Source: Escherichia phage SSL-2009a. Taken from it: a DNA stretch of 44,899 bases. Both the position numbers and the translations under genes were made by a program. How positions within the stretch are numbered: position 1 is the stretch's first letter; the number at the start of each line of letters is the position of its first letter. Positions 2,014-24,008 of this stretch are shown here, one piece after another. A model generated the notes under the pieces. The model had not been told where the DNA came from. It ran no database searches and saw nothing but the letters and a program-made list of their open reading frames with translations. The stretch lies in sequence record NC_012223.2, one strand, 5' to 3'.

Positions 2014-2024
2014 GGAAACCGACC

Positions 2025-5844: not shown

Positions 5845-5883
5845 TTTTGTGTCCTCATTATTGGGGCTTTCGCCCCGATTGGT

Positions 5884-6198: not shown

Positions 6199-6226
6199 TT
6201 TGTTTTCCTTCATATCTATGTTGGTG

Positions 6227-6250: not shown

Positions 6251-6282
6251 TCCAGCAGCGCAAGCGAATTTTGCGATTATTT

Positions 6283-6295
6283 TTATCACTGATAA
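6283..6295. promoter_or_regulatory. 13-bp palindrome TTATCA-C-TGATAA in divergent control region
   Basis: Perfect inverted 6-bp arms seen directly; lies between divergent genes 5884-6198 (-) and scaffold (+). Confidence 0.3.
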
Positions 6296-6352
6296 TATTA
6301 AGGCGTGAAGTCAAGCGGGTGGCCCGCTTTGCCACAATCCCAGGGGGATAGC

Positions 6353-7054: not shown

Positions 7055-7060
7055 GCAGGC

Positions 7061-7086
7061 CGCCCGCGAAAGCGGGCGATTTTGCG
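7061..7086 (+). terminator. rho-independent terminator after scaffold gene
   Basis: CGCCCGC-gaaa-GCGGGCG followed by ATTTTG. Confidence 0.55.
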
Positions 7087-7151
7087 AGCGCGTAAATCTA
7101 AGGTAACATTAACGGCACTGGGCGAATGCTCACAACTCAAAGGATTCTAAT

Positions 7152-8252
7152 ATGTCTTTAACAGTGTTCCAGCGTAAACTCGTCACCGCGGTTACGCAAA
7201 TGATTCCCGATAACCTGAACGTGTTCAACGCTGCCGCTAACGGCGCTGTTGTTCTCGGTACGGGTGAAGTGCTTAAGGACGTTGTAGAAAAAATGTCCGT
7301 AGGCTTGATCGCCAACCTCGTTACCGACCGTAACGCCTATGCCCCTGTCGGTACACCGGCAACCGCAAAAGTGCTGGCGCGTATGCTGACCAACTCGGTT
7401 AACCTTTCCGCGAAAGTGGGTCCTGTTGCGATCACGAAGGCCATGATGGCTAAAATCGAAACCAACGTTAACAGCGTTGCGGCTGAGATTGCGGCACAGG
7501 CAACTCAAGCGATTATGCTGCACTATCTGAAAGCTGGTATCGGCGCGGGTAAAGCGGCTATCGAAAGCAACACAGCGGCAAACTACACCCAACCGGCTCG
7601 CGTTGACGGCGTTGGCGGTCGTACATTCCCGACCCTGGCAGACTTCCCGCTGGCGGCTTCTAAGTTCGGCGATCAGGCGTCTTTGATTAAGTCATGGTTT
7701 ATGGACGGCGTTACCTGGGCAAACTTCATCGCTTACCAGGCGCTTCCATCTGCCGAGCAGGTATTCGCGATCGGCGATCTGCAGGTAATGGGCGATGGCC
7801 TGGGCCGCCGTTTCATTATCTCCGATGCCGCTGCCGATGCAATGGGCGCGGGTAAAATGCTGGGTCTGGTCCCTGGCGCGGTTGCAGTTACCACCAACGG
7901 CCTTGATATGCTGGCGCAGGAAAAAGGCGGTAACGAGAACATTGAGCGCTGGTGGCAGGGCGAGTTCGACTTCAACGTGGCTGTTAAAGGCTATCGTCTG
8001 AAGGCGTCCGCTCGTACTCCGATCGAAGGTGTACGCTCGTTCAAACTGGACGATATCACCACTAAGGATAACTGGGAACTGGATCAGGGCCAGGTAGACA
8101 ACGCCCCGGCAACCGTTCAGGATGTTGGCGCTGTTGGTGACGGCGATACTAAAGGCCGTCGTAAGACCCAGGCCGCACAGGCAGTGCCTACCCGTCACAT
8201 CAAGGAAACCGCTGGCGTACTGGTTACGCTGACTGCGACCACAGCGTCCTAA
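7152..8252 (+). CDS. major capsid protein
   Basis: 366 aa ORF after scaffold, strong SD, Ala/Gly/Val-rich composition, followed by strong terminator; position typical for the major capsid gene. Confidence 0.75.
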   Translation: MSLTVFQRKLVTAVTQMIPDNLNVFNAAANGAVVLGTGEVLKDVVEKMSVGLIANLVTDRNAYAPVGTPATAKVLARMLTNSVNLSAKVGPVAITKAMMAKIETNVNSVAAEIAAQATQAIMLHYLKAGIGAGKAAIESNTAANYTQPARVDGVGGRTFPTLADFPLAASKFGDQASLIKSWFMDGVTWANFIAYQALPSAEQVFAIGDLQVMGDGLGRRFIISDAAADAMGAGKMLGLVPGAVAVTTNGLDMLAQEKGGNENIERWWQGEFDFNVAVKGYRLKASARTPIEGVRSFKLDDITTKDNWELDQGQVDNAPATVQDVGAVGDGDTKGRRKTQAAQAVPTRHIKETAGVLVTLTATTAS

Positions 8253-8269
8253 CAGGCGCACATCCCAAA

Positions 8270-8297
8270 GGGGCGGGCTTATGCCCGCCTTTTTTAT
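8270..8297 (+). terminator. rho-independent terminator after capsid gene
   Basis: GGCGGGC-ttat-GCCCGCC followed by TTTTTTAT. Confidence 0.65.
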
Positions 8298-8310
8298 AGG
8301 AGTGAATGAA

Positions 8311-8811
8311 ATGTATGGCGACCCGCAAACATTTGTCGATTATGCCGCGGCGCGAGGCGTTGAAGTCACGCTGGGCGATGCAACGCGACACCTCACCGTC
8401 GTTAATGACTTCCTTAACGGAATAAACTGGATCGGCGAACCAGCAGACCAGACTGGCATCGACGCATGGCCTCGCATCAATTACCCTTCGGATGGTAAGC
8501 CGGTGCGCGACACGCTCACTGAAGTTGTGGCAGTAGTGCCCGCAGGGCAAATCGTAGATTTTGCATCAACCCCCATTGCCGTCGAGCAAGCCGTTTACAG
8601 GTTGGCGATGTTGGTGGCGGACGAGGTCGATATTTCTCCTGTTGGCAGTGGTAAGGAGACTATCCGCGAAACTGTTGGCCCGATCACGATGGAATATGAC
8701 CCTGCGACGATTGGTAGCGGTGTCTCGTTCCCGTGGTGGGATGGCTTGCTGGGCCACTGGATTGACTCAGACGGCAACGCAGCGGGTAATTTTGACGTAT
8801 TCCGGGGGTGA
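8311..8811 (+). CDS. head-tail adaptor / head completion protein (putative)
   Basis: 166 aa from ATG 8311 (SD AGGAG, 8-nt spacer); position directly after capsid gene. Confidence 0.45.
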   Translation: MYGDPQTFVDYAAARGVEVTLGDATRHLTVVNDFLNGINWIGEPADQTGIDAWPRINYPSDGKPVRDTLTEVVAVVPAGQIVDFASTPIAVEQAVYRLAMLVADEVDISPVGSGKETIRETVGPITMEYDPATIGSGVSFPWWDGLLGHWIDSDGNAAGNFDVFRG

Positions 8812-8812
8812 T

Positions 8813-8929
8813 ATGAATCCTGCATTACTGGCGGCTATTTTAGCCGCAAATACTAAACGTCAACCAGAACCTGAACCAGAGCCAGAACCGGAACCACCGG
8901 TACAGGAGGATGATAATGGCGGGCTTTAA
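8813..8929 (+). CDS. small PE-repeat protein (38 aa, speculative)
   Basis: ATG 8813 overlaps previous stop (TGATATG); encodes MNPALLAAILAANTKRQPEPEPEPEPEPPVQEDDNGGL; overlaps start of next gene. Confidence 0.25.
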   Translation: MNPALLAAILAANTKRQPEPEPEPEPEPPVQEDDNGGL

Positions 8930-9269
8930 TTACACGGGCTTAAAGCGGAAAGTCAATCCGCTGATTAAAAAGTTCGGCATGACGGCTACGGTGACGCGAC
9001 CAGGCACCGTAGACCGCGTAGACGGCGACGAAGTGGTCATCCCTCCGACCTCGTTTGACGTCATCGGGCTTCGCGAGGAGTACAAGCCTAGCGAGATCGA
9101 CGGTACGCGTATCGTTGCCGGGGATGTGAAATTTTTGTGCCAGGCCATCAAGCAGGTAAAGGTCGGTGATTTGGTTAGCCTGAACAATACAGACTACCGG
9201 GTTATCAATCCCAACCCCCTGCAACCAGCGGGACAGACCATGCTGTTTCAACTACAGCTAAGGGGCTAA
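8916..9269 (+). CDS. head-tail joining protein (putative)
   Basis: 117 aa; AGGAGG SD at 8904-8909, ATG 8916 (ORF also has ATG at 8910); position in head-tail connector block. Confidence 0.5.
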   Translation: MAGFNYTGLKRKVNPLIKKFGMTATVTRPGTVDRVDGDEVVIPPTSFDVIGLREEYKPSEIDGTRIVAGDVKFLCQAIKQVKVGDLVSLNNTDYRVINPNPLQPAGQTMLFQLQLRG

Positions 9270-9270
9270 C

Positions 9271-9864
9271 GTGGCTGAGGTATACTCATTCGCCGCCACG
9301 ATCGCAACGTGGGTGGATAAGACGAAGGAGAACAACGACAAGGCGGTGCGGGCGTACGGTATGCAAATACTCGGACGCCTGATCGAGATCTCCCCGGTTG
9401 GGGATCCCCGCCGGTGGAAAATTAACAGGGCTTACGCGCTGGCCCGCCAGCACGCAAACAAGGTGAACGCCGCGCAGCGGCGCAAGAATGGCGGCAAACT
9501 GAAGCGCGGGCAGAAGAAACACGCCAGTGTGCTGGTATCATTCAAAACTAAAAACGGCAATGTAACATTCCGCCAGCGTGGTTGGGCCGCGAAGAATTAC
9601 ACCGGCGGGCGCTTCCGGGGTAACTGGCAGGTGACGTTCGACCGCCCGGCTGTTGGCGCTATTGACCGCGTGGACAAGGCCGGAACGGCAACACTAGCCG
9701 CTGGGCGTGAAGTGCTGGCACATTACGATTCGAGTGAATACGGGTCGATCTGGTTTACTAACAACGTGCCATACGCGCAGCGCCTGGAGTATGGCTGGAG
9801 TAAACAAGCGCCCGCGGGGATTGTTCGCGTAGTAGCGGCAGAAATCAATTCGAAGGTGAAATAA
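9271..9864 (+). CDS. neck / tail component protein (putative)
   Basis: 197 aa, GTG start with SD AAGGGG; position between head-tail genes and tail terminator. Confidence 0.5.
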   Translation: MAEVYSFAATIATWVDKTKENNDKAVRAYGMQILGRLIEISPVGDPRRWKINRAYALARQHANKVNAAQRRKNGGKLKRGQKKHASVLVSFKTKNGNVTFRQRGWAAKNYTGGRFRGNWQVTFDRPAVGAIDRVDKAGTATLAAGREVLAHYDSSEYGSIWFTNNVPYAQRLEYGWSKQAPAGIVRVVAAEINSKVK

Positions 9865-10286
9865 TGAGCAATACTCTAATCCGCAAGGCGCTTAACCGCG
9901 TGGTAGAAGATTTATCGGTAAGCCTGAGCACCAGCCATCGACCGATCCTTGTTAACTGGGAGAACGTGCAGGGGGACCACGCAAACGGTAGTGGTGTCTA
10001 CCTGGAGCCGTACTTACTACCGGCACCGACCCAGTTTGTGGGCTTCCAGCAAAAGGGGAGAATCTATGCAGGCGTTTATCAGGTTGCCGTTGTGTTTCCC
10101 GCGGGTACTGGCACACAGTACGCGAGCGAACTGGCGGACGCCATCGCTACGTCGGATAAGTGGCTGGCGGTAAAGATTTCCGGCGCTGCATTCCAGCTTC
10201 AGGACGCGCCATACACCAGTTCGGTGATTGAAGACGTTGACCGCGCCCGCATCGTAGTTACAGTCCCCTACACCTGTTGCGCCTGA
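9864..10286 (+). CDS. tail terminator / tail completion protein (putative)
   Basis: 140 aa, start overlaps previous stop (TAATG); immediately upstream of major tail protein gene. Confidence 0.5.
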   Translation: MSNTLIRKALNRVVEDLSVSLSTSHRPILVNWENVQGDHANGSGVYLEPYLLPAPTQFVGFQQKGRIYAGVYQVAVVFPAGTGTQYASELADAIATSDKWLAVKISGAAFQLQDAPYTSSVIEDVDRARIVVTVPYTCCA

Positions 10287-10347
10287 TTTGGCGCTATTCT
10301 GCGCGTGCTGTATCATTGAACCGTATATCTAAACAGGAGTGTTCATT

Positions 10348-11073
10348 ATGGGTTATCAACTTCCTAACGGGTCCAGCGTCCAGATTGGGTCCGTACTGGG
10401 CAACGGCATCGCTGTTACGGCAGCTACCAACGCCGCCGCGTCGATCTCTGATCTTACGAAAGGTTGCGTTATCACCTGCGCGGCTTCTCATGGCCTGCAA
10501 GTTGGTGACGTGGTTATGTTCACTAAAACCCCGTGGGTCCGTGCGCTGAACCGCGCGTTCATCGTGGGTAAAGTGGCGACTAACGACGTTACACTGGCGC
10601 GCTTCGACACCTCGGACGTCACCAAATATCCTGCCGGTGCTTTTGGGGCGGGAACCCCAGGCGAAGTGGTGAAAGTGTCGAATTTTATCGACTTCCCGTA
10701 TATCACTAACGTTGCCGTGTCGGGTGGCGACCAGCAGACCACCACCTTCCAGCCGTTGCAGGTGAATACTGCGATCAGTCTGAATACCACGAAAAACCCG
10801 TTGGTCCAGACTTACACGTTCACCCACGACGAAGAAGACCCGATCCGCCCGATTCTGGAAGACCTGGACGACACACAGAAAACCACTGTGATTAAGTTCA
10901 CTAACCCGGCAGCGGCAAGCGGCAAAGGTGAGATCCGCATTTACCCGGCTAAGGTGTCTTTCCAGAAGATTCCATCGGCTGAAGTAAACAACGTGGAGAC
11001 GGTGGAGTCCACCCTCACTATGCAGTCCGATATGGTTATTTACCGTAAGGACCTGGTTGAAGCGCTGTCGTAA
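10348..11073 (+). CDS. major tail protein
   Basis: 241 aa from ATG 10348 (SD AGGAG 9 nt upstream); directly precedes the G/G-T chaperone and tape measure genes; followed by terminator. Confidence 0.65.
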   Translation: MGYQLPNGSSVQIGSVLGNGIAVTAATNAAASISDLTKGCVITCAASHGLQVGDVVMFTKTPWVRALNRAFIVGKVATNDVTLARFDTSDVTKYPAGAFGAGTPGEVVKVSNFIDFPYITNVAVSGGDQQTTTFQPLQVNTAISLNTTKNPLVQTYTFTHDEEDPIRPILEDLDDTQKTTVIKFTNPAAASGKGEIRIYPAKVSFQKIPSAEVNNVETVESTLTMQSDMVIYRKDLVEALS

Positions 11074-11103
11074 TTTGGTCGCTTAAATAGCGGGTGTTAA
11101 TAT

Positions 11104-11128
11104 GGGGCCAGTACGGCCCCTTTTTTTA
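11104..11128 (+). terminator. rho-independent terminator after major tail gene
   Basis: GGGGCC-agtac-GGCCCC followed by TTTTTTT. Confidence 0.65.
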
Positions 11129-11143
11129 TTGGAGAATACCACA

Positions 11144-11506
11144 ATGGCTAAAGCACCACTCTTTACACTCGACCCTAAACCGACTTTTAAGCTACCGATT
11201 GAGATCCCGCGCCCCGGAGAAAACGAACCTGGCAAAATGACGTTTACCGTGCGCCACCGTCCGATCGACGAGTTTTCGCAGACCATGCAGGATACTGAGC
11301 GCAAGTTGTCAGAATATGACGACAATGACCCGGACGGCTTTAATGTTATGGTCGAGGCCATCATGCACGTCGCAGAAGGCTGGAATCTGCCGGACGAATT
11401 TAACGCGGAGAACGTCCGCCGCTTGGTGGTCAACTACCCGCGCGCGTTCGGCGTGTTCCATACGTCGTACTATCTCGAACTGATGGGATTGCGTGAAAAA
11501 AACTAA
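11144..11506 (+). CDS. tail assembly chaperone (gpG-like)
   Basis: 120 aa from ATG 11144 (SD GGAGA); acidic; ends just after the slippery heptamer A_AAA_AAC (11497-11503). Confidence 0.7.
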   Translation: MAKAPLFTLDPKPTFKLPIEIPRPGENEPGKMTFTVRHRPIDEFSQTMQDTERKLSEYDDNDPDGFNVMVEAIMHVAEGWNLPDEFNAENVRRLVVNYPRAFGVFHTSYYLELMGLREKN

Positions 11507-11820
11507 TTGAGGCGGCGCGACGCTTTTATGGCCCGCCGCCACCCTCCGAAGATTTAGCCGCGAGTTTATGGGGCGCGGCCCCTGAAGATGTTTGCCCACC
11601 AGTTGCGCTATGGCCCGACAACGCTAAGGTAGTCGCCGTCTTCACGGATTGCTCCACGCAATGGCGCACCGGATTCGGCGGCGCATACGGCATCGACTAC
11701 GGCGTACTGGAATGGCTTTTTAAGATGCACGGCATCGAAAACGCGCAACGTGCGTTTAAAGATATCAAGCTAATGGAACGAGTTGCGCTGGATGAAATGG
11801 CGCGGCAGAACCACGCATAA
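11144..11820 (+). CDS. tail assembly chaperone frameshift product (gpG-T-like, via -1 frameshift at 11497-11503)
   Basis: The -1 frame is open from the slippery site A_AAA_AAC to TAA 11818-11820 (about 105 extra codons, translated by hand with no stops); canonical position between major tail and tape measure genes. Confidence 0.6.
11497..11503 (+). other. programmed -1 ribosomal frameshift slippery heptamer A_AAA_AAC
   Basis: X_XXY_YYZ heptamer in the zero frame of the gpG-like gene, two codons before its stop. Confidence 0.6.
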
Positions 11821-12145
11821 CGGAGCGGGACAGGCGGGACGTCCCGTTTTGTCCCGCCACCACTAAACCGCATATATACTCACTTTCATTGCATAAATTA
11901 AAAGCGGGACAGGTGCGCTGTCCCGATCTGTCCCACCCCCAAAATGTGAATATCTATTCGATTTTCGTGCATAAAACAAACGGGACAAAAAGCGGGACAG
12001 AATTGGGCGGGACAAAGCGGGACAGCACCCCTGTCCCCGCCAGTGCTGCCGCGGGTTTTAGCCGATCGGGACAGGCGGGACAAAGCCAAGTCTTTCAGAC
12101 TAGACGGGGGTCAATGGCCCCCCTCGTCTGAGACTGAATAAGGTT
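11821..12145. repeat. iteron/palindrome-rich element A (GCGGGACA units, GGGACAG-N5-CTGTCCC palindromes, terminal GC hairpin)
   Basis: At least 9 direct and 5 inverted copies of GCGGGACA-like units; about 150 bp (11978-12137) nearly identical to 39700-39860; hairpin 12101-12130. Confidence 0.7.
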
Positions 12146-12204
12146 TGTTTTAAATTCGCTGATACAATGACCGACGGCAACTGCATAAAAAGGGGGACTG
12201 CATA

Positions 12205-14844
12205 ATGGCAGATCAGGCAGCGGGCATCACGCTCAAGGCGGACGTCGCGCAAATTAAAACGGCGAATACTGTGCTGGACACATTTGCGCAGAAATCCGAG
12301 AACACAGAACAGAAAGTAAAAAAATTAAACGACACCCTCGGCAAGTCGAAAAAGGTTACTGGCGACGCCGCGGGCGGAATGGAAAAGTTAGCGACTGAAT
12401 CGCAGCGCGCCGCCGACGGCATGACGAAACAGGAGCGACTAGCCAGCCGATTAGGCATGTCGACCAAAAACCTGGGATTCGCATCGCGGAACGCCGCATT
12501 CCAGTTACAGGATATCGCGGTTACGCTTGAGATGGGTATGCCGGTGCACCGCGTTATGCTTCAGCAGCTACCGCAGCTTACTGGGGCGTTTGGCGGACTG
12601 GGAAACACGCTGCGTTATGTCGTCGGCACACTCGGCCCGTTAGGGATCGGCATCGCTGCATTAACGGCAACGCTCGGCGTAGGGGTGGCAATTACGACCC
12701 GCGCAGAGAACCAGGTGGCGGCGCTTAATAAGACGCTGGCGCTGTCCGGTAATATTTCAGGCCTGACAGCTAACCAGATCCTTGTGCTGTCCGAGAACGC
12801 CGAGCGCATGGGCGGGTCATTTCGCAAGACGCGTGACACAATCCAGGCGCTGGCGGCGGCGGGTGTGAAAGCGGGTGGTGACTTTGGCGCATTGGCTAAG
12901 GTAGTGAATGACTTTGCGAAGGTGTCCAGCCAGCCGATCGAGGATGTGGTAGCGGCGGTGGCGAAGCTGTCAACCGACCCGGTAGGCGGCTTGCGCGCAC
13001 TGGCGGATAAGTATCACGTCGTAAACGAAGCGCAGATCCAGCAGGTACAGTCGCTGGTTGATGCGGGTCGTGAGACAGACGCAGTTGCGTTGGCTAACAA
13101 AACAGCCGCTGCGTCGTTCACCAGCATGACCAATGAGATCAAGGCGAACATGGGTACGCTTGAGCGGTCTATGAACGTCGTCACTTCGGCAGCTAAATCA
13201 ATGTGGGACGCTATCCTGGATGTGGGTCGCGCGCAGTCCTCCAATGAGTCTGAGATGAAAGCGCGCGAATCACTCCAGCGCATGACCACGGCGTACTATG
13301 CCGAGATGAAAGCGGTAAACGCAGCCGGTGGGGTAATGACTGAAGCGCAGAAAGCGCGTATTAACATGCTTTATAGCGAACTGGTCGCCCAGGAGAAAGT
13401 AGTAGCGTCGCTCACCCTGCGTAACCGTGCGGAGCGAGACAACGCCCGATCCGCAGACGAATCCGCAAAGGCGAACGAGGAGGCTAACCGCACCGCCCGC
13501 GACCGCGCTGCGTTCGAGAAGGAGTACGCAACCAACGCGAAGAAGCGCGCAGACGAGATCGCCCGCCTCAATTTGCTGAATAAGCGCGGCGTTATTGACG
13601 AGAAAGAGCTTGCTGAGGCGGTTAAGCAGGTAAACGAGCGTTACAAAGACCCGGCCCCGAAGAAGGCCGCGGCTGTTCGCGTGGATGCCGGTATGAAAAT
13701 GCTGGAAGTCGCACGGAGCGAACTGGCCCAGCTTCGAGAATCCGGCAAGCAGATCGAAGCCAACGCGTCTACGCAGACCCGCACGCAACGCGCGCAAGCG
13801 GCCTTAAACAAGCTGATCGCCGACAATGAGCAGTTAATTGCTGCGAGCAAAGAAAGAGCGCTAACGGCAGCAGAAAAGCAGCAGATGGTCGAATTCGGAC
13901 GCGTGAAGGAAGTGCGCGAGCAGATCGTCGAAGAAGCCAAATTGCTGGACGCGAAAGAGAAGCAGGTTAAGGCGCACGCGCAGATCGATGCCTTCGTTAA
14001 GAACCAGAACGCCGAACTAAAAGCCACCGCCGCGGGCTATGCGCTTTCCACTCGCGAAGCGGCAAACCTGCGCGAAGAATTGCAGTTAATCGACCGCCTG
14101 AAGCGTGTAGGCGCTAACGATACCGATATTGACAAGGCGGTGTCTAAGCTGCGGGAAGTGCAGGAGGCGCAGACCGGCGCTAACGCCTCGCTATGGGATG
14201 GATTCAGTCGCGGGCTTAAGGATAGCGTGGATGAAATGGGTAACGGATATACGCAGATGGCGTCGCTTACGAAATTCACATTCAGCGCTATGCAAGACAC
14301 GATGAACGAGTTTTTCGAGACTGGCAAGATTAACGCGAAGGATATGGTCAAATCCATCCTGAGCGAGTTAATCAAGCTGGCTACCTCGCAGGCGTTCAAG
14401 TCCATCGTTGGCGCTTTCGGTGGCGGCGGCAAAAACGGATTGTTCGGCGCTATCTTCTCGGGCCTCACTAAGAATGCGGACGGCGGAGCGTACGCAGGAG
14501 GCAATCTCGCGGCCTATTCGGGTAAGGTGGTAAGCCAGCCTACCTTTTTCAGTTATGGCGTCCAGGCGTTCGCTAAGGGCGCAGGATTGATGGGTGAGGC
14601 TGGACCCGAGGCCATCATGCCACTGAAGCGCGGGCCGGACGGGAAACTTGGCGTTGCCGCGTCGGGTGCGGGCGGTGGTATGGTCGTGACGACTAACGTT
14701 TACACTGGGGCCGGTAAAACAGACACCAGTGTGAGCGGCCCAGACCCCCGTACAGCGCAGGCGTTCGGCAAGCAAATCACCGAGGCGGTGAAGGCCGAGA
14801 TCGTGAAAGCGACGAAACCGGGTGGTGTACTTTACAAACGATGA
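12205..14844 (+). CDS. tail tape measure protein
   Basis: 879 aa, Ala/Gln/Lys-rich coiled-coil composition, glycine-rich C-terminal part; SD AGGGGGA; located after the G/G-T chaperone. Confidence 0.85.
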   Translation: MADQAAGITLKADVAQIKTANTVLDTFAQKSENTEQKVKKLNDTLGKSKKVTGDAAGGMEKLATESQRAADGMTKQERLASRLGMSTKNLGFASRNAAFQLQDIAVTLEMGMPVHRVMLQQLPQLTGAFGGLGNTLRYVVGTLGPLGIGIAALTATLGVGVAITTRAENQVAALNKTLALSGNISGLTANQILVLSENAERMGGSFRKTRDTIQALAAAGVKAGGDFGALAKVVNDFAKVSSQPIEDVVAAVAKLSTDPVGGLRALADKYHVVNEAQIQQVQSLVDAGRETDAVALANKTAAASFTSMTNEIKANMGTLERSMNVVTSAAKSMWDAILDVGRAQSSNESEMKARESLQRMTTAYYAEMKAVNAAGGVMTEAQKARINMLYSELVAQEKVVASLTLRNRAERDNARSADESAKANEEANRTARDRAAFEKEYATNAKKRADEIARLNLLNKRGVIDEKELAEAVKQVNERYKDPAPKKAAAVRVDAGMKMLEVARSELAQLRESGKQIEANASTQTRTQRAQAALNKLIADNEQLIAASKERALTAAEKQQMVEFGRVKEVREQIVEEAKLLDAKEKQVKAHAQIDAFVKNQNAELKATAAGYALSTREAANLREELQLIDRLKRVGANDTDIDKAVSKLREVQEAQTGANASLWDGFSRGLKDSVDEMGNGYTQMASLTKFTFSAMQDTMNEFFETGKINAKDMVKSILSELIKLATSQAFKSIVGAFGGGGKNGLFGAIFSGLTKNADGGAYAGGNLAAYSGKVVSQPTFFSYGVQAFAKGAGLMGEAGPEAIMPLKRGPDGKLGVAASGAGGGMVVTTNVYTGAGKTDTSVSGPDPRTAQAFGKQITEAVKAEIVKATKPGGVLYKR

Positions 14845-14851
14845 TAAAATG

Positions 14852-14880
14852 GCCTCCACATCCATCGTGGGGGCTTTTCT
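14852..14880 (+). terminator. intrinsic terminator-like hairpin after tape measure gene
   Basis: 8-bp stem (one G-U) 14852-14874 followed by CTTTTCT; abuts ATG 14881. Confidence 0.4.
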
Positions 14881-16265: not shown

Positions 16266-16267
16266 CC

Positions 16268-17008
16268 ATGTTAACGAAAAAGGTTAAAAGCGATATCGCC
16301 GCACACGTTGCGGCGTGTCTGCCGGAAGAAGCCTGCGGCCTGGTTGTCATGGTTGGTCGTAAGCAAGTATTCGTCCCATGTCTGAACGTATTCGAAGACC
16401 CGACCGGCGTGCGCTCACGCAAGGACGCGTTTACTATTAGTGATATGGCCTGGATGGATGCCGAGGATATGGGCGACGTCGTGCGCGTAGTCCATTCGCA
16501 TCCGGGACAGCGAGAGCTTACCCCCTCACTGGGCGACGTTAATGGATGCAACGGCAGCGGCGTAGTCTGGACCATCACTAACGAATATGGCGACTTTATC
16601 GAGATCGACCCTGAAGACCCGCCGCTGGTGGGGCGTCGATTTGTTCTCGGAATTACGGATTGTTACGGCCTCGTCATGGACTGGCACAAAAAGCAGGGAG
16701 TAAACCTGCCCGACTTCCGCGTGCCGTATAACTGGTGGGAGACAGGCGAAAACCTGTATATGGACAATTGGTACGGTGCGGGCTTCAGGGAATGCGAGGA
16801 GAATACGCCGGGGGCGATGGTCATAATGCAGATCAGCGCGCCAGTGCCAAACCACGCTGGGATATTCCTTCCGGGCAACCAACTACTACACCATATCTAC
16901 GGTAGTCTGTCGAGCGTGATACCCTTCCGGTCAGGATTTTTCCGCGACAATGTGGTTAAATGGGTACGTCATAAAGACCTACCGGGGGATATCACAGAAT
17001 GGCAATGA
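16268..17008 (+). CDS. tail tip protein (lambda gpK-like; JAB/MPN plus NlpC/P60-like domains)
   Basis: 246 aa; HSHPG (JAMM-like HxH) motif and later Cys/His pair (DCYGLVMDWH) consistent with NlpC/P60; position. Confidence 0.7.
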   Translation: MLTKKVKSDIAAHVAACLPEEACGLVVMVGRKQVFVPCLNVFEDPTGVRSRKDAFTISDMAWMDAEDMGDVVRVVHSHPGQRELTPSLGDVNGCNGSGVVWTITNEYGDFIEIDPEDPPLVGRRFVLGITDCYGLVMDWHKKQGVNLPDFRVPYNWWETGENLYMDNWYGAGFRECEENTPGAMVIMQISAPVPNHAGIFLPGNQLLHHIYGSLSSVIPFRSGFFRDNVVKWVRHKDLPGDITEWQ

Positions 17009-17616
17009 CCACGTTTAAATTGTACGGCGTCTTAGGGCGTCGATTCGGCAAAGTGCATAAGCTGGACTGCTTCACACCGGGCGAAGGAATCACCGGCTTG
17101 TGTGTGAAGTTGCCAGGGTTACAAGACTTTTTAATGTCGGCCCACCTGGACAACATGATGTTCAAGGTGCGCAAAGGCGACCACACAATGACCGGCTATG
17201 ACGAGCTAGGCGAGTTCCACGGCAACCGCGTCGTCACCATCGCTCCGGTTATGACTGGCGCAAAAAGAGGATTGGGCCAATTGCTGGCGGGTGTCGCGAT
17301 CGTAGTGGCGTCGTTCTATACGGGCGGACTTGCTACTGCCGCTTTCGGGGCTTCGGCTGCAACCGCTGCCGCGATCGGTACGGCGACATTTTCGTTCGGG
17401 ATGTCGATGGCGCTGGGTGGCGTTATGCAATTGCTGTCGCCTCAACCGAAAGGATTGCAAACAAGGCAGGACGTGGATAACAAGGCTTCGTATGCGTTCG
17501 GGGGGCCGGTAAACACGACCGCGCAAGGCACGGCACTTGGTGTATTATGGGGCGAGCGTGAGATCGGCGGCGCTATTATTTCAGCCGGAATCGTAACCGA
17601 GGATTTGAACGAATGA
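16999..17616 (+). CDS. tail assembly protein (lambda gpI-like)
   Basis: 205 aa with glycine/alanine-rich hydrophobic central region; overlaps neighbours; position between K-like and J-like genes. Confidence 0.65.
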   Translation: MAMTTFKLYGVLGRRFGKVHKLDCFTPGEGITGLCVKLPGLQDFLMSAHLDNMMFKVRKGDHTMTGYDELGEFHGNRVVTIAPVMTGAKRGLGQLLAGVAIVVASFYTGGLATAAFGASAATAAAIGTATFSFGMSMALGGVMQLLSPQPKGLQTRQDVDNKASYAFGGPVNTTAQGTALGVLWGEREIGGAIISAGIVTEDLNE

Positions 17617-20600
17617 CGATTATCTACGACGTCACGGGCCATAAAGGCGGCGGCGGCAAACAGCACACCCCACAGGAGACGCCCGATAGCCTGCATTCGC
17701 TGGCTAAAATCCGCATCTTGCTCGCGTTGGGCGAGGGTGAATTCGAAGGCATTACGAGCGCCAGCGAATTGCGGCAGCGTGTATACCTGGACGGAACACC
17801 GATCCAGAACGCAGACCTGTCTGAAAACTTCCCCGGAGCGCGTGTGGAGTTCCGCCCCGGAACACAGCACCAGGATGTGATCCACGGATTTTCAGCGGTG
17901 GAAAGTGAGCAATCCGTTGGGGTAAAACTGGAGAACGGCACGCCGTGGGTGCGCCAGATTAACGACACCAGTTTGGACGCCGTGCGCATTCGCATCGGCA
18001 TTCCGGCCTTGTACACAAACGAAGATAATGGCGACCTGGTGGGTGGGCGCATCGACTATAAGATCGTTGTGTATACGGATAACGCCGACCCGCGTGAGTT
18101 TACCTTCGCTGCCGTTGGTAAAACAATGTCGCTATACGAGCGCGATCACCGCATCGAATTACCGCCGAACGTGAATACCGGCTGGCGCGTGGAGGTGCAC
18201 CGCATAACGGCAGACTCCACATCGGCGAAAGTGGTTAATGATATCCGGGTGCAGTCCATCACTGAGATTATCGACGCCCGCCTGCGTTACCCGCTAACCG
18301 CGCTGTTGTTTGTGGAGTTCGACGCCAAAGCGTTCCAGAACATCCCGCGCGTGTCCATCAAGTGCAAAGGCCGCAAAGTTCTAATACCGAACAACTACGA
18401 CCCGATTAATCATACTTATTCCGGGGACTGGGACGGCACGTTTAAACGCGCATGGACGGATAACCCTGCGTGGCACTGGTACGATATTTGTATTACTGAG
18501 CGCTTCGGCCTCGGTCGGCGTATCAAACCGCAAATGTTAAACCGGTACGCGCTCTACCAGATCGCGCAGCGCTGCGATCAGTTGGTCAGCGACGGCAACG
18601 GTGGTCGAGAAATCCGCTTTAAGAATGATATGTACATTCAGTCACAGACGGATGCCTGGACCGTGCTTAAGGATTTGGCTGCCATCTTCGCCGGAATGAC
18701 CTGGTGGGGCAACCAGATGTTGAATATCGTCAGTGACCAACCGGTCGCAGCAGTGTCGCACACTATCACCAACGCATCTGTTATTGATGGGCGATTCGAC
18801 TACGCATCTGGCAGCCAGAAAACTCGCTATTCCACATTCGCGGTAGCATACGGCAATCCGAAAAACCACTACGATGACGCCATCGCAACGGGCCAACGTG
18901 TTGAACTGGTACGCCGCCATAAGATTAACCGTCTTGATATTACGGCGATCGGCTGTACGCGCGAATCCGAAGCGCAACGCCGCGGGCATTGGGCGCTAAT
19001 ATCCAACCAGCTTGACCAGCAAGTTAGTTTTAAGGTGGGCATGGAAGGGTTATTCTTTATTCCTGGTAGCGTAGTCGCGATCGCGGATACAAACATTTCT
19101 GGCGGATTCGAGACTCGCGGCGGTCGCCTGTTGTCGGACCCAGGAACGCGTACCGTGCTGAACACGGACAGCGAAATCACATTCCGCCCTGGTGATAAGT
19201 TCTTGGTGCGCACCGATAGCGGAAATGTGGAGACTCGCGAGATCGCCAGCGTCAACGGCAACAAGGTCACGCTAAAAACCGCACTGGATGCCGACCCGAT
19301 TCCAGACCAACCGTTTTGCGTTGACGGCGATGATATCCAGTTGCAGAAATTCCGCATCACCGATCTGGAATATGACGACTCTACCAGCACTTTCTCGGTG
19401 CGCGGGATTGAATACAACGATAGCAAGTATGATGCCGTTGATAATGGCGCACGACTAGACCCAGGCATCTTTACGCAAGTGCCAGACGGTGTAATGAAGG
19501 GGCCGGAATCCGTTACCATCACCCCGTCGCAGATCTCATCGCAAGGCCAGCTAATCACCAACGTGGATATTGTTTTCCCGCCGGTGAAAGATGCCGTGGT
19601 GTATGAAATCCAGTGGAGGCGTACTAGCCTGCAGAATATGGAGATCCAGTGGGGTAACGACTGGGTGAATATCCCTCGCACGGCGTCGAATGGGGCGCAC
19701 ATCCCTAACGTGTTCTCCGGTAACTATCAGGCACGCGTCCGCGCAATTGGTATGGGCGAAATCTCGTCCCCGTGGGTGTCTTCCGCGATCACGCCGGTGG
19801 AAGGTCGCCTCGGTGGGCTTAACGCCCCAATCATCACCAACGCGATTTCGGGTCTGCACCAGATTCTATGGAAGTGGAACCACAACAACGCTGCGACTGA
19901 TATATCATACACCGAGCTTGAAGTGCGCAAGACGGGTGAAACGGAATGGAAATTCTTAACAAACGTCCCCTATCCTGGCGCGGAGTACGCGCAAACGTCG
20001 CTGGAGTTCGGCATATACCAGCAGTTGCGCGCCCGTGTAGCGGATAAAATCGGCAACCTGTCGGACTGGTCCGCCCCGTTCGAAGGCCAGGTGAGTGACA
20101 AAGTTGACGAGTACATGAAGGGGCTTGATGACGAGTTCTTGACTTCTGAGGATGGTAAACACTTCCAGGAAGCTATTAACACGATCCCGCAAGGCATTTA
20201 CGAATCAATGCTCACGGACGCCCAGCAGATGTTCAACGCCCGCGCCGAGTACAAAGGGATTTACGCAGAAATCAAGGTCGCATATAACGTGGCGGCAGAC
20301 GCCCACAAGGCAGTCGCGCAACTGGAAACGTTGATCGGCACTCGCCTTGACGATGCGGAAGCGGCAATCCACACGTTGCAGACAGCGCAAAGCACGCACG
20401 AGCAAGCATTCGCCCAGTATCAGCAAACTGTTGCCGCTAAGTTCGGGGAACAGGAAGCCGCCATCCAGCAGGTACAAACGGCAACGGCGGACGTGGCTGG
20501 CGCACTGGCGGAGTACAAGACCCAAGTGGCGGCACAGTTCGGGCAGCAGTCCGCCGCTATCGAGCAGAAGATGACGTCCACGTTTAACCATGCCGGTGGT

Positions 20601-21032
20601 AACGCCACATACAGCCTTAAGGCGGGCGTGACGTATAACGGGACTTACTATGATGCCGGTATGCAGCTTTCCGTCGTGGCGGAAGGCGGCGCGGTTAAAT
20701 CCCGTATAGCGTTCAAAGCGGACCAGTTCTATATCATGCACCCGTCTAACGGCACGCTGTCGTCTGCGTTTATCGTCGACGGTGGGGCGGTGTATATCGA
20801 CACAGCGCGCATCAAGGACGCGACTATTAACTTCGCGCAGATCACGGACACGCTGCAATCGAATAACTATGACGGCAACACGCGTGGTTGGCGCTTAGGG
20901 AAAGAGGGGACGTTTATCAACCTGGGAACCGGTAACGGCGGCGGGATGAAACAGACGAACACGCAAATCAGCGTTAGGGACGGAAACGGCGTGCTCCGCG
21001 TGCAGCTTGGAGAACTCACAGGTAGTTGGTAG
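17613..21032 (+). CDS. central tail fiber / host specificity protein (lambda gpJ-like)
   Basis: 1139 aa, ATGA overlap with upstream gene; size and position typical for J. Confidence 0.8.
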   Translation: MTIIYDVTGHKGGGGKQHTPQETPDSLHSLAKIRILLALGEGEFEGITSASELRQRVYLDGTPIQNADLSENFPGARVEFRPGTQHQDVIHGFSAVESEQSVGVKLENGTPWVRQINDTSLDAVRIRIGIPALYTNEDNGDLVGGRIDYKIVVYTDNADPREFTFAAVGKTMSLYERDHRIELPPNVNTGWRVEVHRITADSTSAKVVNDIRVQSITEIIDARLRYPLTALLFVEFDAKAFQNIPRVSIKCKGRKVLIPNNYDPINHTYSGDWDGTFKRAWTDNPAWHWYDICITERFGLGRRIKPQMLNRYALYQIAQRCDQLVSDGNGGREIRFKNDMYIQSQTDAWTVLKDLAAIFAGMTWWGNQMLNIVSDQPVAAVSHTITNASVIDGRFDYASGSQKTRYSTFAVAYGNPKNHYDDAIATGQRVELVRRHKINRLDITAIGCTRESEAQRRGHWALISNQLDQQVSFKVGMEGLFFIPGSVVAIADTNISGGFETRGGRLLSDPGTRTVLNTDSEITFRPGDKFLVRTDSGNVETREIASVNGNKVTLKTALDADPIPDQPFCVDGDDIQLQKFRITDLEYDDSTSTFSVRGIEYNDSKYDAVDNGARLDPGIFTQVPDGVMKGPESVTITPSQISSQGQLITNVDIVFPPVKDAVVYEIQWRRTSLQNMEIQWGNDWVNIPRTASNGAHIPNVFSGNYQARVRAIGMGEISSPWVSSAITPVEGRLGGLNAPIITNAISGLHQILWKWNHNNAATDISYTELEVRKTGETEWKFLTNVPYPGAEYAQTSLEFGIYQQLRARVADKIGNLSDWSAPFEGQVSDKVDEYMKGLDDEFLTSEDGKHFQEAINTIPQGIYESMLTDAQQMFNARAEYKGIYAEIKVAYNVAADAHKAVAQLETLIGTRLDDAEAAIHTLQTAQSTHEQAFAQYQQTVAAKFGEQEAAIQQVQTATADVAGALAEYKTQVAAQFGQQSAAIEQKMTSTFNHAGGNATYSLKAGVTYNGTYYDAGMQLSVVAEGGAVKSRIAFKADQFYIMHPSNGTLSSAFIVDGGAVYIDTARIKDATINFAQITDTLQSNNYDGNTRGWRLGKEGTFINLGTGNGGGMKQTNTQISVRDGNGVLRVQLGELTGSW

Positions 21033-21036
21033 CATA

Positions 21037-21058
21037 GGGGCTTCGGCCCCATTCTTTT
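21037..21058 (+). terminator. rho-independent terminator after J-like gene
   Basis: GGGGC-ttcg-GCCCC followed by ATTCTTTT. Confidence 0.6.
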
Positions 21059-21069
21059 GGAGGTATAGC

Positions 21070-21372
21070 ATGGCTTTCGGTGTCGCAACATGGGACGCGC
21101 AAGGGCGACCAAACAACTACGGGATCAAGCCCGTTTCGGTTGTAGGAATTATTAAACTGGCACAAGGTCAAACATCGGGGGCGTGGGCGTTCGATATTCC
21201 TTCAGGTATGAAAGTAGGTTTTGCGGTTACGCTGGACGTAGGCGGCACTACGGTCGGTCGGGCGATCCGTGCCAGCGGGAACACGATAACAGTATCTGCG
21301 GCAAACAGCGTCGGTATTGGAAACTACCCGGCGTCAGAATGTGAAGTAGTAGTTTTTGTGGAGAAAGCGTAA
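21070..21372 (+). CDS. hypothetical tail-associated protein
   Basis: 100 aa from ATG 21070 (SD GGAGG 6 nt upstream); located between J and tail fiber genes. Confidence 0.45.
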   Translation: MAFGVATWDAQGRPNNYGIKPVSVVGIIKLAQGQTSGAWAFDIPSGMKVGFAVTLDVGGTTVGRAIRASGNTITVSAANSVGIGNYPASECEVVVFVEKA

Positions 21373-21374
21373 AA

Positions 21375-22046
21375 ATGGCAAACTTCGGCGCGTTAATCGA
21401 TAACAACAACGGCAACCCATTCGTAACGCCAAACTCAACGCCGTTCGTCCTCTACGCTAAGGTGTCGGCAAATTCAGTGGACGCCGGTGCTGATTATAAA
21501 ACAGCAAGCGGGGGCGTGGATATTCCAGCGAACTATCCGGCGATGGTGTTTATGCGGTCAAATAACCGTTGCGTCCTGGCGGCGTCACGATCAGGTAACC
21601 GGATTATATTTAGCGGAAGCATTCAGGGGCAGAATAACCCACATTTTACCGTCACGGCGTACATATTCGCGCGATTCCCGCAACCGCTGCCGAGATGGGG
21701 GTTTGCTATTTGGGACGCCAGCGGGACTTGCATACTAACCAACGAGAGCAAGGTACTCACCGATTTAGTCACGGTTGGCAGCTTTGGCAATAACGGCGGC
21801 ATCAACATAGACCAGACGCTGCCGGGTAAGTACGCGGTATCACCTATGTTAATGGGCGCTACTCTGATCCAGATCTTTGTACAGGGGCAGCCGCTGATTA
21901 TCCAGATCACGGCGGGGGCAGGGGCTTACGACAACGGAAGCGGAACACGGATTAACGCCGTGGCAACACAAGCGGGGTCTGGTAGCGTCGCGGGGTATCA
22001 AAACACTGGGGTTGCTTTGACAGCGATTAACGTGGATGGAATATGA
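21375..22046 (+). CDS. hypothetical tail-associated protein
   Basis: 223 aa ORF, start 3 nt after previous stop; Gly/Asn-rich; between J and tail fiber. Confidence 0.5.
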   Translation: MANFGALIDNNNGNPFVTPNSTPFVLYAKVSANSVDAGADYKTASGGVDIPANYPAMVFMRSNNRCVLAASRSGNRIIFSGSIQGQNNPHFTVTAYIFARFPQPLPRWGFAIWDASGTCILTNESKVLTDLVTVGSFGNNGGINIDQTLPGKYAVSPMLMGATLIQIFVQGQPLIIQITAGAGAYDNGSGTRINAVATQAGSGSVAGYQNTGVALTAINVDGI

Positions 22047-22047
22047 A

Positions 22048-22063
22048 AGCCCCTTCCGGGGCT
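22048..22063. terminator. hairpin between convergent genes (AGCCCC-ttcc-GGGGCT)
   Basis: Perfect 6-bp stem between the end of 21375-22046 (+) and the stop of the lipoprotein gene (-); T-runs are weak on both sides. Confidence 0.4.
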
Positions 22064-22281
22064 TATTCGCAGGTGGTGCTTTTGAAGTGGTCGACCGACA
22101 CATACTGGAAGTTGAACGGGTAGCCCGCCCGCAACATTTTATGCCCGCTAAAATCGGCAACACCGAACACCGGGACCGAGTATTCCATGCCGCTATTAAC
22201 ATATGTCGCGTCGCAGACTTTAGTCGGCATGTTGGCACAACCCGACAAAAGAACCGCACAAATCATAATTAAAGTTTTCAT
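22063..22281 (-). CDS. lipoprotein, candidate receptor-blocking superinfection-exclusion protein (Cor/Llp-like by context)
   Basis: 72 aa from ATG 22281 (SD AGGGGA); signal peptide with lipobox LLSGC; antisense gene directly upstream of the tail fiber gene. Confidence 0.55.
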   Translation of the reverse strand: MKTLIMICAVLLSGCANMPTKVCDATYVNSGMEYSVPVFGVADFSGHKMLRAGYPFNFQYVSVDHFKSTTCE

Positions 22282-22312
22282 GGTATCATCCCCTATATTT
22301 GGTTGAGTTTTA

Positions 22313-22345
22313 GTATTACACCGCTCGACCAGGATTGCAACCAAT
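22313..22345 (-). promoter_or_regulatory. candidate sigma70-type promoter for the lipoprotein gene (extended -35 ATTGGTTGCAAT, -10 TAATAC)
   Basis: On the minus strand: ATTGG-TTGCAA, 16 nt spacer, TAATAC; TTGCAA at 22335-22340, -10 at 22313-22318. Confidence 0.45.
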
Positions 22346-22361
22346 TTATGAGGATTCAGCT

Positions 22362-23978
22362 ATGGCAGCGGGTACACTATCCGTAACGAATAACAGCAAG
22401 GCGGTTGTCGGGGTAGGCACGACGTTTACCGCGTTTAAAGCTGGCGACTTCTTAACGCTGGTGGTAGGACAAGTCCCCTACACCGTGGCAATCGCGTCCA
22501 TTGAAAGCGCAACCGCGCTCACGCTGGTGTTACCGTTCGACGGACCCACGGCCACCGGCCTTGCCTGGGATGGCGTTGCGCGCGATACCATGTCACTGGC
22601 GACGATGGGCGTAACAGTCCAGGCACAGAAAGCATTGCGCTTGATGATTGCGGATGAAAACAACTGGCGTGCAATCTTCGGCGACGCTGAAGAGATCACC
22701 GTTACGCTGCCCAACGGGCAAGTTATGCAGGGTATGTCATGGGGCTACCTGTCGCAATTGATGAAGCAGATCGACCCCGTTGAAATGCGCAACCTACAAC
22801 AACAAGCCGCCGCGTCTGAAGCAGCAGCGCAAGGATTTCGCAATGAGGCCGAAGGCTTCAAGAACGATGCCAATACCATCAAGACGCAGACCAACCAAAT
22901 CAAGGCCGATACGCAGGCGGTCCACGACGCCACCAACACCATCAAGACGCAGACGAATCAGATTAAGGCCGATACGCAAGCCATCAAGGACCAGACGAAC
23001 CAGATCAAGACGGATACCGGCATTATTCGGGACCAAGCCAATACGGCGAAGACTGACGCGCAAGCCGCCAGAGATGCCGCGAAAGGGTATCGGGATGAAG
23101 CCGAAGACTTCAAAAACGCGGTCAACCCTACGCAATTCATGAAGACGTCTCAGAACCTGGCAGACGTAGCAAATCAATCAGCGGCACGCTCTAATCTTGG
23201 TCTTGGGTCGGTAGCTACGGAGAACACCGTTCCGATCGAGAAAGGAGGAACCGCCGCGACAACGGCAGCGGCGGCACGCTCTAATTTCGGGTTGGGCGAA
23301 AACAATAACGTAAAACTTGGTACGTTGCGCCTAAACGGTGGTGAATCGCTAGTCTTCAATGATGTCGAAAGAAACGGCTTAGCACTATCAAACGTCTCAT
23401 ATGGGATAGATAGTTGGGTAGGCTTCACCATGCACAAATGGTACGCCGACTGGACCCGCGCAGGAATTGTGCGTGCGGGGGACACCCACCTGTCAGACTA
23501 CCGCGTCCACGTGTGGAAAGATGGTATGACTGAATCGCTATTCCGCTTCCTACCGGACGGCAGGCTTATTAGTGGTAACAGCGGCAACCCGTCGGTTAAC
23601 GAGTTCCAGAAAGCGGCGCTATCGGACCGCGACCTTAAAAAAGAAATCAAATACACGGACGGCGAGGAAAGCTACAACCGCGTTCGCCAGTGGCTTCCGG
23701 CGATGTTCAAGTATAAGGAGTCGGACGTACAGCGATACGGCCTTATCGCGCAGGATCTGGCAAGGATTGACCCGGAATACGTGCATTTGCTGCCGGGTTA
23801 CGCCATTTATGAGGACGTCAAGGGGGTCGACGAGGAAGGGAATGAGGTTGTAGTCGACCGCAAGGAGATCGGGTATACCGACGATGTGCTGTCTTTGGAT
23901 AGTAACGTGCTGTTGATGGACCTGTGTGCCGCCTTCGTCCACCTGTTGCATAAAGTGGAGAAGCTGGAAGGTAAATAA
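22362..23978 (+). CDS. tail fiber protein with internal 21-residue repeats and C-terminal chaperone-like domain
   Basis: 538 aa from ATG 22362 (SD GAGGA); tandem TIKTQTNQIKADTQA repeats; C-terminal region (DRDLKKEIKYTDGEESY...GLIAQDLARIDPEYV) resembles the intramolecular chaperone of S74-type fibers (by recollection). Confidence 0.7.
   Translation: MAAGTLSVTNNSKAVVGVGTTFTAFKAGDFLTLVVGQVPYTVAIASIESATALTLVLPFDGPTATGLAWDGVARDTMSLATMGVTVQAQKALRLMIADENNWRAIFGDAEEITVTLPNGQVMQGMSWGYLSQLMKQIDPVEMRNLQQQAAASEAAAQGFRNEAEGFKNDANTIKTQTNQIKADTQAVHDATNTIKTQTNQIKADTQAIKDQTNQIKTDTGIIRDQANTAKTDAQAARDAAKGYRDEAEDFKNAVNPTQFMKTSQNLADVANQSAARSNLGLGSVATENTVPIEKGGTAATTAAAARSNFGLGENNNVKLGTLRLNGGESLVFNDVERNGLALSNVSYGIDSWVGFTMHKWYADWTRAGIVRAGDTHLSDYRVHVWKDGMTESLFRFLPDGRLISGNSGNPSVNEFQKAALSDRDLKKEIKYTDGEESYNRVRQWLPAMFKYKESDVQRYGLIAQDLARIDPEYVHLLPGYAIYEDVKGVDEEGNEVVVDRKEIGYTDDVLSLDSNVLLMDLCAAFVHLLHKVEKLEGK
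22836..23120 (+). repeat. tandem 63-bp coding repeats within the tail fiber gene
   Basis: accatcaagacgcagac...aaggccgatacgca repeated at 22875 and 22938 with a third degenerate copy; flanked by repeated FKN(D/A) segments. Confidence 0.6.
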
Positions 23979-23984
23979 GGAGAA

Positions 23985-24008
23985 GGGGCCGTGCGGCCCC
24001 TTTTTTAG
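23985..24008 (+). terminator. rho-independent terminator after tail fiber gene
   Basis: GGGGCC-gtgc-GGCCCC followed by TTTTTT; marks the convergent junction with the minus-strand operon. Confidence 0.7.

Follow-up and report, generated by a model that had tools for sequence, protein, structure and literature searches.

Escherichia phage SSL-2009a (NC_012223.2) carries, along the stretch that encodes its head and tail proteins, six short hairpins that are each followed by a U-rich run and each placed just past the stop codon of a structural gene. These putative intrinsic terminators, numbered T1 to T6 by position, are the subject of this analysis. The window, that is, the whole stretch of 44,899 base pairs (bp) analysed, is a complete Dhillonvirus genome and belongs with the HK578/EP23/JL1-like virulent siphoviruses of Escherichia coli. 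JL1, PC2, EP23 and others share 93-96% identity with it across 8 kilobases, EP23 is co-linear with it from the small terminase gene onward, and the IMG/VR entry UViG_643677414 is identical to it. The products of the genes upstream of the hairpins, all on the plus strand, were assigned by PHROG scans: head scaffolding protein (6353-7054; phrog_206, E = 5.5e-51), major capsid or major head protein (7152-8252; phrog_247, E = 1.1e-53), major tail protein (10348-11073; phrog_584, E = 6.7e-75), tape measure protein (12205-14844; phrog_24, E = 2e-180), the J-like central tail fibre (17613-21032; phrog_31, E = 0) and tail fibre (22362-23978; phrog_1980, E = 1e-130). They agree with a preliminary description of this DNA, which had named the same six genes as those followed by terminators. 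A minor tail protein gene (14881-15480, plus strand; phrog_9922, E = 4e-140) has a start that abuts T4. The phrog_1980 match opens at residue 10 of the tail fibre open reading frame (ORF; 22335-23978) and GAGGA precedes ATG 22362, which is probably the start codon rather than TTG 22335.

All six stems comprise 5-9 contiguous pairs, with loops of 4-7 nucleotides (nt) and predicted folding energies (dG) between -9.6 and -17 kcal/mol. T1 (7061-7083, plus strand) begins 6 nt past the scaffold stop codon and reads CGCCCGC-GAAA-GCGGGCG, a 7-bp stem at 7061-7078 closed by a GNRA tetraloop (dG -14.9), then ATTTTG. T2 (8272-8295, plus; GGCGGGC-TTAT-GCCCGCC at 8272-8289, dG -15.6, then six T) lies 19 nt past the capsid stop codon, and T3 (11104-11127, plus; GGGGCC-AGTAC-GGCCCC at 11104-11120, then seven T) lies 30 nt past that of the major tail gene. 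T4 (14851-14879, plus), 6-7 nt past the tape measure stop codon, has a 9-bp stem with two G-U pairs and a 7-nt loop (14851-14875; dG -15), followed by TTTTC; because its stem ends at 14875 and the next ATG is at 14881, the earlier statement that this element abuts the following start codon is borne out. T5 (21037-21058, plus), 4 nt past the J stop codon, is GGGGC-TTCG-GCCCC (21037-21050), with a UUCG tetraloop, then ATTCTTTT. T6 (23983-24006), 4 nt past the fibre stop codon and readable on both strands, is AAGGGGCC-GTGC-GGCCCCTT (23983-24002; 3' arm as RNA, GGCCCCUU) with a T-run at 24001-24006.

The tract after the stem is U6 in T2 and T6, U7 in T3 and U4 in T4 (U5-U6 in relatives), and it is marginal in T1 (AUUUUG) and T5 (AUUCUUUU, or UUUCUU in relatives). 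Strength scores, which are approximate values of the d'Aubenton-Carafa type computed with modern energy parameters, are 49 for T2, 48 for T3, 24 for T6, 5.5 for T4, -3 for T1 and -15 for T5. Folding in context separates T2 (z = -3.5) and T6 (z = -4.1) from shuffled sequence. Quality is uneven along the series: only the capsid (T2) and major tail (T3) elements look strong, and T1 and T5 are, by these predictions, weak as terminators.

The placement of the six sites is far from random. A strict scan (an uninterrupted stem of 5 bp or more, dG <= -8, four or more T among the next eight bases, and a TTT) of the plus strand from 6305 to 24030 returns seven matches, six of which are T1-T6; the seventh, at 16618 (dG -8.4), is intragenic. 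T1-T6 all fall within the 454 intergenic nt of these 17,726 (2.6%; binomial P = 1.9e-9). In 300 dinucleotide shuffles, 0.97 +/- 1.0 sites appeared at dG <= -9.6 against the six observed, and no shuffle reached six. When the whole genome is compared with the ORF map, 19 of 23 sense-strand strict matches sit directly after a stop codon, so the late-region sites belong to a genome-wide set. Membership of the hairpins in a known structured RNA was considered and rejected, since an Rfam search of the entire window at the gathering threshold gave no match; a scan of the window for transfer RNA and transfer-messenger RNA genes found no such genes. Between 6305 and 24030, strict hairpin-plus-T sites occur once inside late genes on the sense strand versus about ten times on the antisense strand, a scarcity that may reflect selection against premature termination or an A>T skew of the coding strand.

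All six hairpins are kept at homologous junctions in about 25 loci drawn from GenBank relatives and IMG/VR contigs, with fixed stems and drifting loops. T1 shows a compensatory C-G to U-A change in relatives, T2 is conserved in all Dhillonvirus loci examined, and T3 shows compensatory C-G to G-C changes in loci L022 and L004. In the same two loci T4 has a U-G to U-A change, and relatives carry runs of five to six T behind it. The T5 hairpin is identical in relatives that share the gene order; at least three unrelated hairpins follow J in relatives with other downstream gene orders, and at least four different hairpins occur there overall. T6 combines an invariant stem with a variable loop in ten relatives (GTGC, ATAC, ATGC, ATAT, ACAC), and L029 has an A-U to G-C change. 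Standard pairs account for 91-93% of cells in three alignments, versus 32-67% when the 3' partners are slid as a control, except for a slide of +1 on T3 (86%); MAFFT misaligned the stems of the divergent loci L023 and L004 by at least one column, which inflated the number of cells scored as not paired.

More distant sequences keep the sites with other letters. In the divergent contig L023 the scaffold, capsid, major tail and tape measure genes are followed by other stems, with the T1 layout unchanged and, at the position of T4, ACCCCC...GGGGGT followed by six T. In Eiauvirus eiAU-183, where capsid identity is 61%, the capsid gene is followed by GGGGCGGGGC-TTTT-GCCCCGCC plus a T-run and the major tail gene by GGCCGCC-GCAT-GGCGGC plus five T, and both stems begin 20 nt past the respective stop codons. 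This retention of position through sequence turnover is, on the present comparisons, stronger evidence than covariation, which is weak among sequences so similar, with most relatives showing identity of at least 88%. The six hairpin-plus-U sites first described are thus present, enriched and conserved.

The elements themselves are not new, since five of the six sites are already annotated in relatives and the principle is textbook. vB_EcoS_PTXU06 (NC_073064) and vB_EcoS_WF5505 (NC_073060) have homologous elements with near-identical stems at the same junctions. The PTXU06 GenBank record lists ARNold putative terminators after the scaffold, capsid, major tail, tape measure and fibre homologues, and the WF5505 record lists the same set minus the major tail site; the T4 homologues are called in relatives at about -15 kcal/mol. 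The ARNold annotation procedure comes from Korf et al. 2019 (PMC6563267), and the HK578 record (NC_019724) also contains several terminator features. In the PTXU06 and WF5505 records the post-J hairpin is unannotated and the entries consist of the software call and dG only; these two records and that of HK578 are silent on strength differences, ribosome proximity, promoters and function.

The preliminary description had treated the whole region as a single late operon, and this does not hold. The cor superinfection-exclusion lipoprotein gene (22063-22281; lipobox MKTLIMICAVLLSGC; phrog_1119, E = 6e-28) lies on the minus strand, the strand on which relatives annotate it as well, and together with an overlooked convergent hairpin at 22049-22062 (GCCCC-TTCC-GGGGC) it interrupts the array from 6305 to 23978. 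This hairpin, a strict-scan match on each strand, stands between the stop codons of the plus-strand gene 21375-22046 (22044-22046) and of cor (22063-22065), and its stem is conserved in relatives. T6 is likewise a strict-scan match on both strands and lies between the stop codons of the fibre gene (23976-23978, plus) and of the minus-strand gene 24580-24005 (24005-24007). Both have the layout of bidirectional terminators, which indicates that they end convergent transcription units rather than grade them. With cor on the minus strand and convergent terminators at 22049-22062, the fibre gene needs its own promoter.

Loops of two of the hairpins are found in both orientations. That of T1 is GAAA in most relatives and TTTC in PTXU06 (L002) with an unchanged stem, and that of the 22049-22062 hairpin (22054-22057) is TTCC or TTTC in some relatives and GAAA in others (L027-L029 compared). 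Such reverse-complementing could represent DNA palindrome flipping, or selection for a GNRA loop on either strand. The segment between J and the fibre gene is itself variable in content: here two genes within 21070-22046 on the plus strand encode membrane or outer-membrane proteins (phrog_557, phrog_425), an arrangement that about 31 relatives share together with cor. Other relatives have two or three minus-strand genes in its place: SO-1 and HK578 encode a membrane protein and a lipoprotein, and PTXU06 encodes three hypothetical proteins.

From the end of the stem to the next start codon there are 21 nt after T2, 24 after T3, 6 after T4 and 19 after T5, mostly taken up by the U-run and a Shine-Dalgarno sequence: T2 is followed by U6-AUAGGAGUGAAUGAA-AUG (8311) with AGGAG in between, T3 by U7-AUUGGAGAAUACCACA-AUG (11145) with GGAG in between, and T5 by GGAGG and then ATG 21070. 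A promoter cannot fit after T2-T5, so that the connector, chaperone and tail-tip genes need polymerase read-through, and where read-through is required, at T2 and T3, a step-down in messenger RNA (mRNA) is its natural consequence. At the level of sequence, this need for read-through would be the strongest argument for a step-down. In E. coli, intrinsic terminators placed a few bp past a stop codon are repressed almost completely by the terminating ribosome, and an efficiency of about 0.9 is reached only beyond about 30 bp from the stop codon (Li et al., PMC4824070). When score and stop-codon distance are taken together, only T2 and T3 look efficient.

Candidate promoters for sigma-70 precede four of the genes. 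Ahead of the scaffold gene, TTGCGA-16-TAATAT (6271-6298, plus strand; 8/12 matches, with TG two bases upstream of the -10) lies between divergent genes, in the intergenic region 6199-6352, and is kept by the three relatives that can be aligned at that point. Ahead of the capsid gene, TTGCGA-16-TAACAT (7082-7109, plus) has a -35 hexamer that overlaps the U-run of T1; its hexamers are invariant, L004 and L022 differ from it in the spacer, and the counterpart in L023 is TTGCAC-16-TATCAT. A pattern scan places TTGGCG-17-TATCAT (10288-10316, plus; 9/12) ahead of the major tail gene, and in 14 distinct relative sequences its -10 is invariant, its -35 nearly so and its spacer variable. The candidate for the tape measure gene is an extended -10 element, TGATACAAT (12160-12168, plus), without a good -35 hexamer, which is invariant in 16 distinct relative sequences with variable flanks. 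Since conserved candidate promoters precede these genes, an excess of their mRNA could stem from promoters as much as from attenuation.

Taken together, these features make it probable on balance that the late region works as a chain of promoter, gene and leaky terminator on the host polymerase, in which conserved intrinsic terminators differ in strength. T2 and T3, with perfect GC stems of 6-7 bp and U6-U7 at 19-30 nt past the stop codon, beyond the reach of a terminating ribosome, would stop most transcripts and let some pass, leaving capsid and tail-tube mRNA in excess over connector, chaperone and tail-tip mRNA. At T1, T4 and T5 the 5' arm would be occluded by the terminating ribosome and the U-runs are poorer, so these elements may impose only small, translation-dependent steps; T4 would in addition mask the Shine-Dalgarno sequence of the next gene and thereby couple minor tail translation to that of the tape measure gene. 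T6 and the 22049-22062 hairpin are predicted to close convergent units in both directions, and the candidate sigma-70 promoters before the scaffold, capsid, major tail and tape measure genes would lift transcription anew. Anatomy, placement, enrichment and conservation of the sites are shown directly; that transcripts end there in vivo, how efficiently they do so, how ribosomes affect this and whether the promoters are active are inferred from the DNA. Graded mRNA had originally been proposed for all six sites, with capsid and major tail transcripts exceeding those for tail-tip components. That idea stands best for T2 and T3, the best-formed of the elements, which follow the genes for the most abundant proteins and which require read-through, and a step-down of late mRNA by terminators is plausible there; its extension to the full set does not, since T1 and T5 have weak U-runs, T6 closes a unit and the candidate promoters could equally give the excess.

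Several points weigh against this account and limit how far it can be pressed. T1 and T5 score at or below the usual threshold for terminators; the U-run of T1 is predicted, in context, to pair with an upstream GCAGG into an extended helix, and T5 folds in context no better than shuffled sequence (z = +1.2). Only one or two pairs per stem have changed on both sides; these counts favour pairing, but they exceed the shuffle controls only marginally. The candidate promoters are weak matches to consensus (8-9/12) or lack a -35, and promoter-like sites are not enriched overall in the scans. Since the tape measure protein is needed in few copies only, a module that boosts its gene misfits simple stoichiometry. 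A literature search for Dhillonvirus RNA-seq or term-seq found none, the related work being a host-only transcriptome, proteomics and a T5-like phage. Finally, a phage antitermination factor may yet override the terminators: a PHROG scan of ten non-structural proteins recognised no antiterminator or Q-like protein, a screen confined to those ten, most of them of unknown function.

A different arrangement, for which we see perhaps one chance in three or a little less, is one of insulated modules, in which every abundant gene is served by a promoter of its own and ends in an efficient terminator, promoter strength sets the mRNA level, terminators only prevent run-on, and downstream genes are served by rare read-through or by further promoters. 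It overlaps largely with the promoter-terminator chain preferred here. The conserved candidate promoters before the scaffold, capsid, major tail and tape measure genes speak for it, as do terminator-then-promoter junctions at 43297-43356 and, on the minus strand, at 27120-27063, and the late region of phage T1 has been described in this way (PMC11447400). Its difficulty lies with the genes between, because no candidate promoter separates the preceding terminator from the connector (8311-10286), chaperone (11145-11820) or tail-tip (14881-21032) genes; for these, polymerase would still have to read through, as the attenuation model has it, and the promoter calls themselves are weak consensus matches.

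For T4 alone, a primarily translational role is possible, though we consider it doubtful: the stem would be a coupling hairpin in which GGGGG, the Shine-Dalgarno sequence for ATG 14881, stays sequestered until the hairpin is melted by a ribosome that completes the tape measure gene. The GGGGG of the 3' arm is the only Shine-Dalgarno-like sequence there, 7-11 nt before the ATG, and the layout recurs in every relative including L023; the distance from stop codon to stem is also within the ribosome footprint, where terminators are repressed. Coupling has no need, however, of the canonical U5-U6 that relatives keep after the stem, and ARNold calls the T4 homologues terminators at about -15 kcal/mol. 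Both functions may coexist.

More speculative still is an extension of the preferred chain in which terminator strength is set by distance from the stop codon, which we would sooner doubt than adopt. Only T2 and T3, at 19 nt or more, would fire efficiently; the four elements at 4-7 nt would be gated by ribosomes, T4 doubling as a coupling hairpin; each promoter would share bases with the terminator before it; and the repeated 8-mer GCAACCAA, taken up below, would be a possible operator. Behind the capsid and tail-tube genes, the spacing of 19 nt or more is kept into Eiauvirus, and gated terminators, firing only when the upstream gene is untranslated, would act as a polarity or quality-control switch. 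A possible stop-distance tuning of strength, together with overlapping terminator-promoter junctions, is the only mildly novel angle here.

An unlikely further role is that of mRNA 3'-end stability elements, which would block 3'-to-5' exonucleases once the message has been terminated or processed elsewhere; scaffold, capsid and tail-tube mRNA would then last longer, and the point at which polymerase stops would not be set by the hairpins. Terminators that enhance the stability of the upstream mRNA are reportedly the subject of one paper (PMC11696848). The fit is best at T1 and T5, whose stems are stable and conserved yet whose U-runs are poor, and whose GNRA and UUCG tetraloops are unusually stable. 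The conserved U5-U7 directly after the stem in T2, T3, T6 and, in relatives, T4 would be needless for stability alone, although stability and termination are not exclusive. That the hairpins are GC-rich palindromes that arose by chance, or scars left by recombination between modules, and have no RNA role is hardly credible: a loose built-in scan of positions 1-20000 found terminator-like sites without overall enrichment (25 versus 23 expected) and loops are sometimes reverse-complemented between relatives, as DNA-level palindrome flipping would yield, but the sites lie strictly on the sense strand just past stop codons (P = 2e-9), the T-run is always on the 3' side relative to transcription, and stems and T-runs are kept across two genera.

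The promoter-terminator chain favoured here has partial parallels in other phages. The lambda late operon has one promoter, and its processive Q antiterminator overrides terminators; there, too, a long siphovirus structural array is read by the host polymerase through terminators. Unlike lambda, SSL-2009a has candidate internal promoters and no Q-like protein among the ten screened. In phage T7, the leaky terminator T-phi follows capsid gene 10. Stepwise read-through of weak terminators has been documented in other phages, as in LUZ7 by ONT-cappable-seq (PMC9163698), where inefficient terminators likewise follow highly expressed genes, balance expression and are read through sequentially from one start site. 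LUZ7 and T7 differ in that their systems have been measured and use phage-encoded RNA polymerases, whereas that of SSL-2009a would use the host polymerase and is known from its sequence only. Phage T1, also a virulent E. coli siphovirus on the host polymerase, has terminators that bracket structural groups with sigma-70-type promoters inside, and its late region has been proposed in silico to consist of promoter-gene-terminator modules termed 'transcriptons' (PMC11447400); the TLS authors were able to establish just one clear module. It belongs to a different family, Drexlerviridae, and the likeness is one of inferred layout to an in silico model.

If the account is correct, it describes a simple, conserved way for a small virulent siphovirus without its own polymerase to match mRNA supply to virion stoichiometry, in which hundreds of capsid and tail-tube copies stand against about a dozen connector proteins and a few tail-tip proteins. 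Phage engineering would gain a natural series of terminators of graded strength, along with compact junctions of terminator and promoter. With the principle established in other phages and the elements annotated in sister genomes, this would be local detail rather than new biology.

A separate observation concerns the 8-mer GCAACCAA, which occurs in 21 copies in the genome versus 1.9 +/- 1.2 expected. Copies at 6228, 6242, 22337, 25186/25198, 27096/27113, 30054, 33862/33878, 36797, 39610-40054 (five copies), 40565 and 43334/43357 are mostly intergenic, in pairs 14-23 nt apart, and overlap or flank promoter-like sites. Relatives carry it too, with 21 copies at syntenic positions in SO-1 and 23 in Eiauvirus eiAU-183. 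At 25207-25178 (minus strand) it supplies a TTGCAA -35 hexamer, and the pair at 43327-43364 occupies the spacer and the +1 position. A role as a plain -35 element was rejected as the sole explanation, because it fits 25207-25178 and 27116-27088 (minus) and fails at 43327-43364 and 33899-33862, where copies lie in the spacer and at +1. The 8-mer is a candidate operator for a phage regulator, which might time the promoters. The only DNA-binding candidate among the ten non-structural proteins screened is a small helix-turn-helix protein (36993-37322).

At the minus-strand junction 27120-27063, a promoter-like TTGCAT-17-TATATT (27120-27088) is built partly from two GCAACCAA copies and would start inside the 5' arm of a terminator hairpin (27087-27063). 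Upstream transcripts would terminate there, and newly started ones would lack the hairpin. The overlap of T1 with the candidate capsid promoter at 7080-7087 resembles this junction.

Two non-coding repeat regions, 11821-12100 and 39598-40076, are rich in GCGGGACA/TGTCCCGC (18 genome copies) and in long palindromes. The SO-1 record names 'region A' and 'region B' there, with direct, inverted and palindromic repeats, and some relatives label hairpins in them as terminators. The hairpin at 11825-11847, after the chaperone frameshift product, was considered as a seventh terminator, since relatives annotate terminators nearby, and was rejected: its U's pair inside a GCGGGACA...TGTCCCGC palindrome, no U-run follows, and it is part of 'region A'. 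Just upstream of the candidate tape measure promoter, an imperfect inverted repeat at 12087-12136, CAAGTCTTTCAGACTAGACGGGGG-loop-CCCCCCTCGTCTGAGACTG, has arms that are fixed in relatives and a loop that varies (TCAATGG, TCAGCGG, TTTAATG, TCTGGCA).

Within 11490-11820, the tail chaperone gene has GTGAAAAAAACTAA at its end, with seven A's at 11496-11502. An ORF in another frame runs on to the stop codon at 11818-11820, and the HK578 and SO-1 records list gp16 (DUF1799) separately at this place; this is probably the usual programmed frameshift of the G/GT type.

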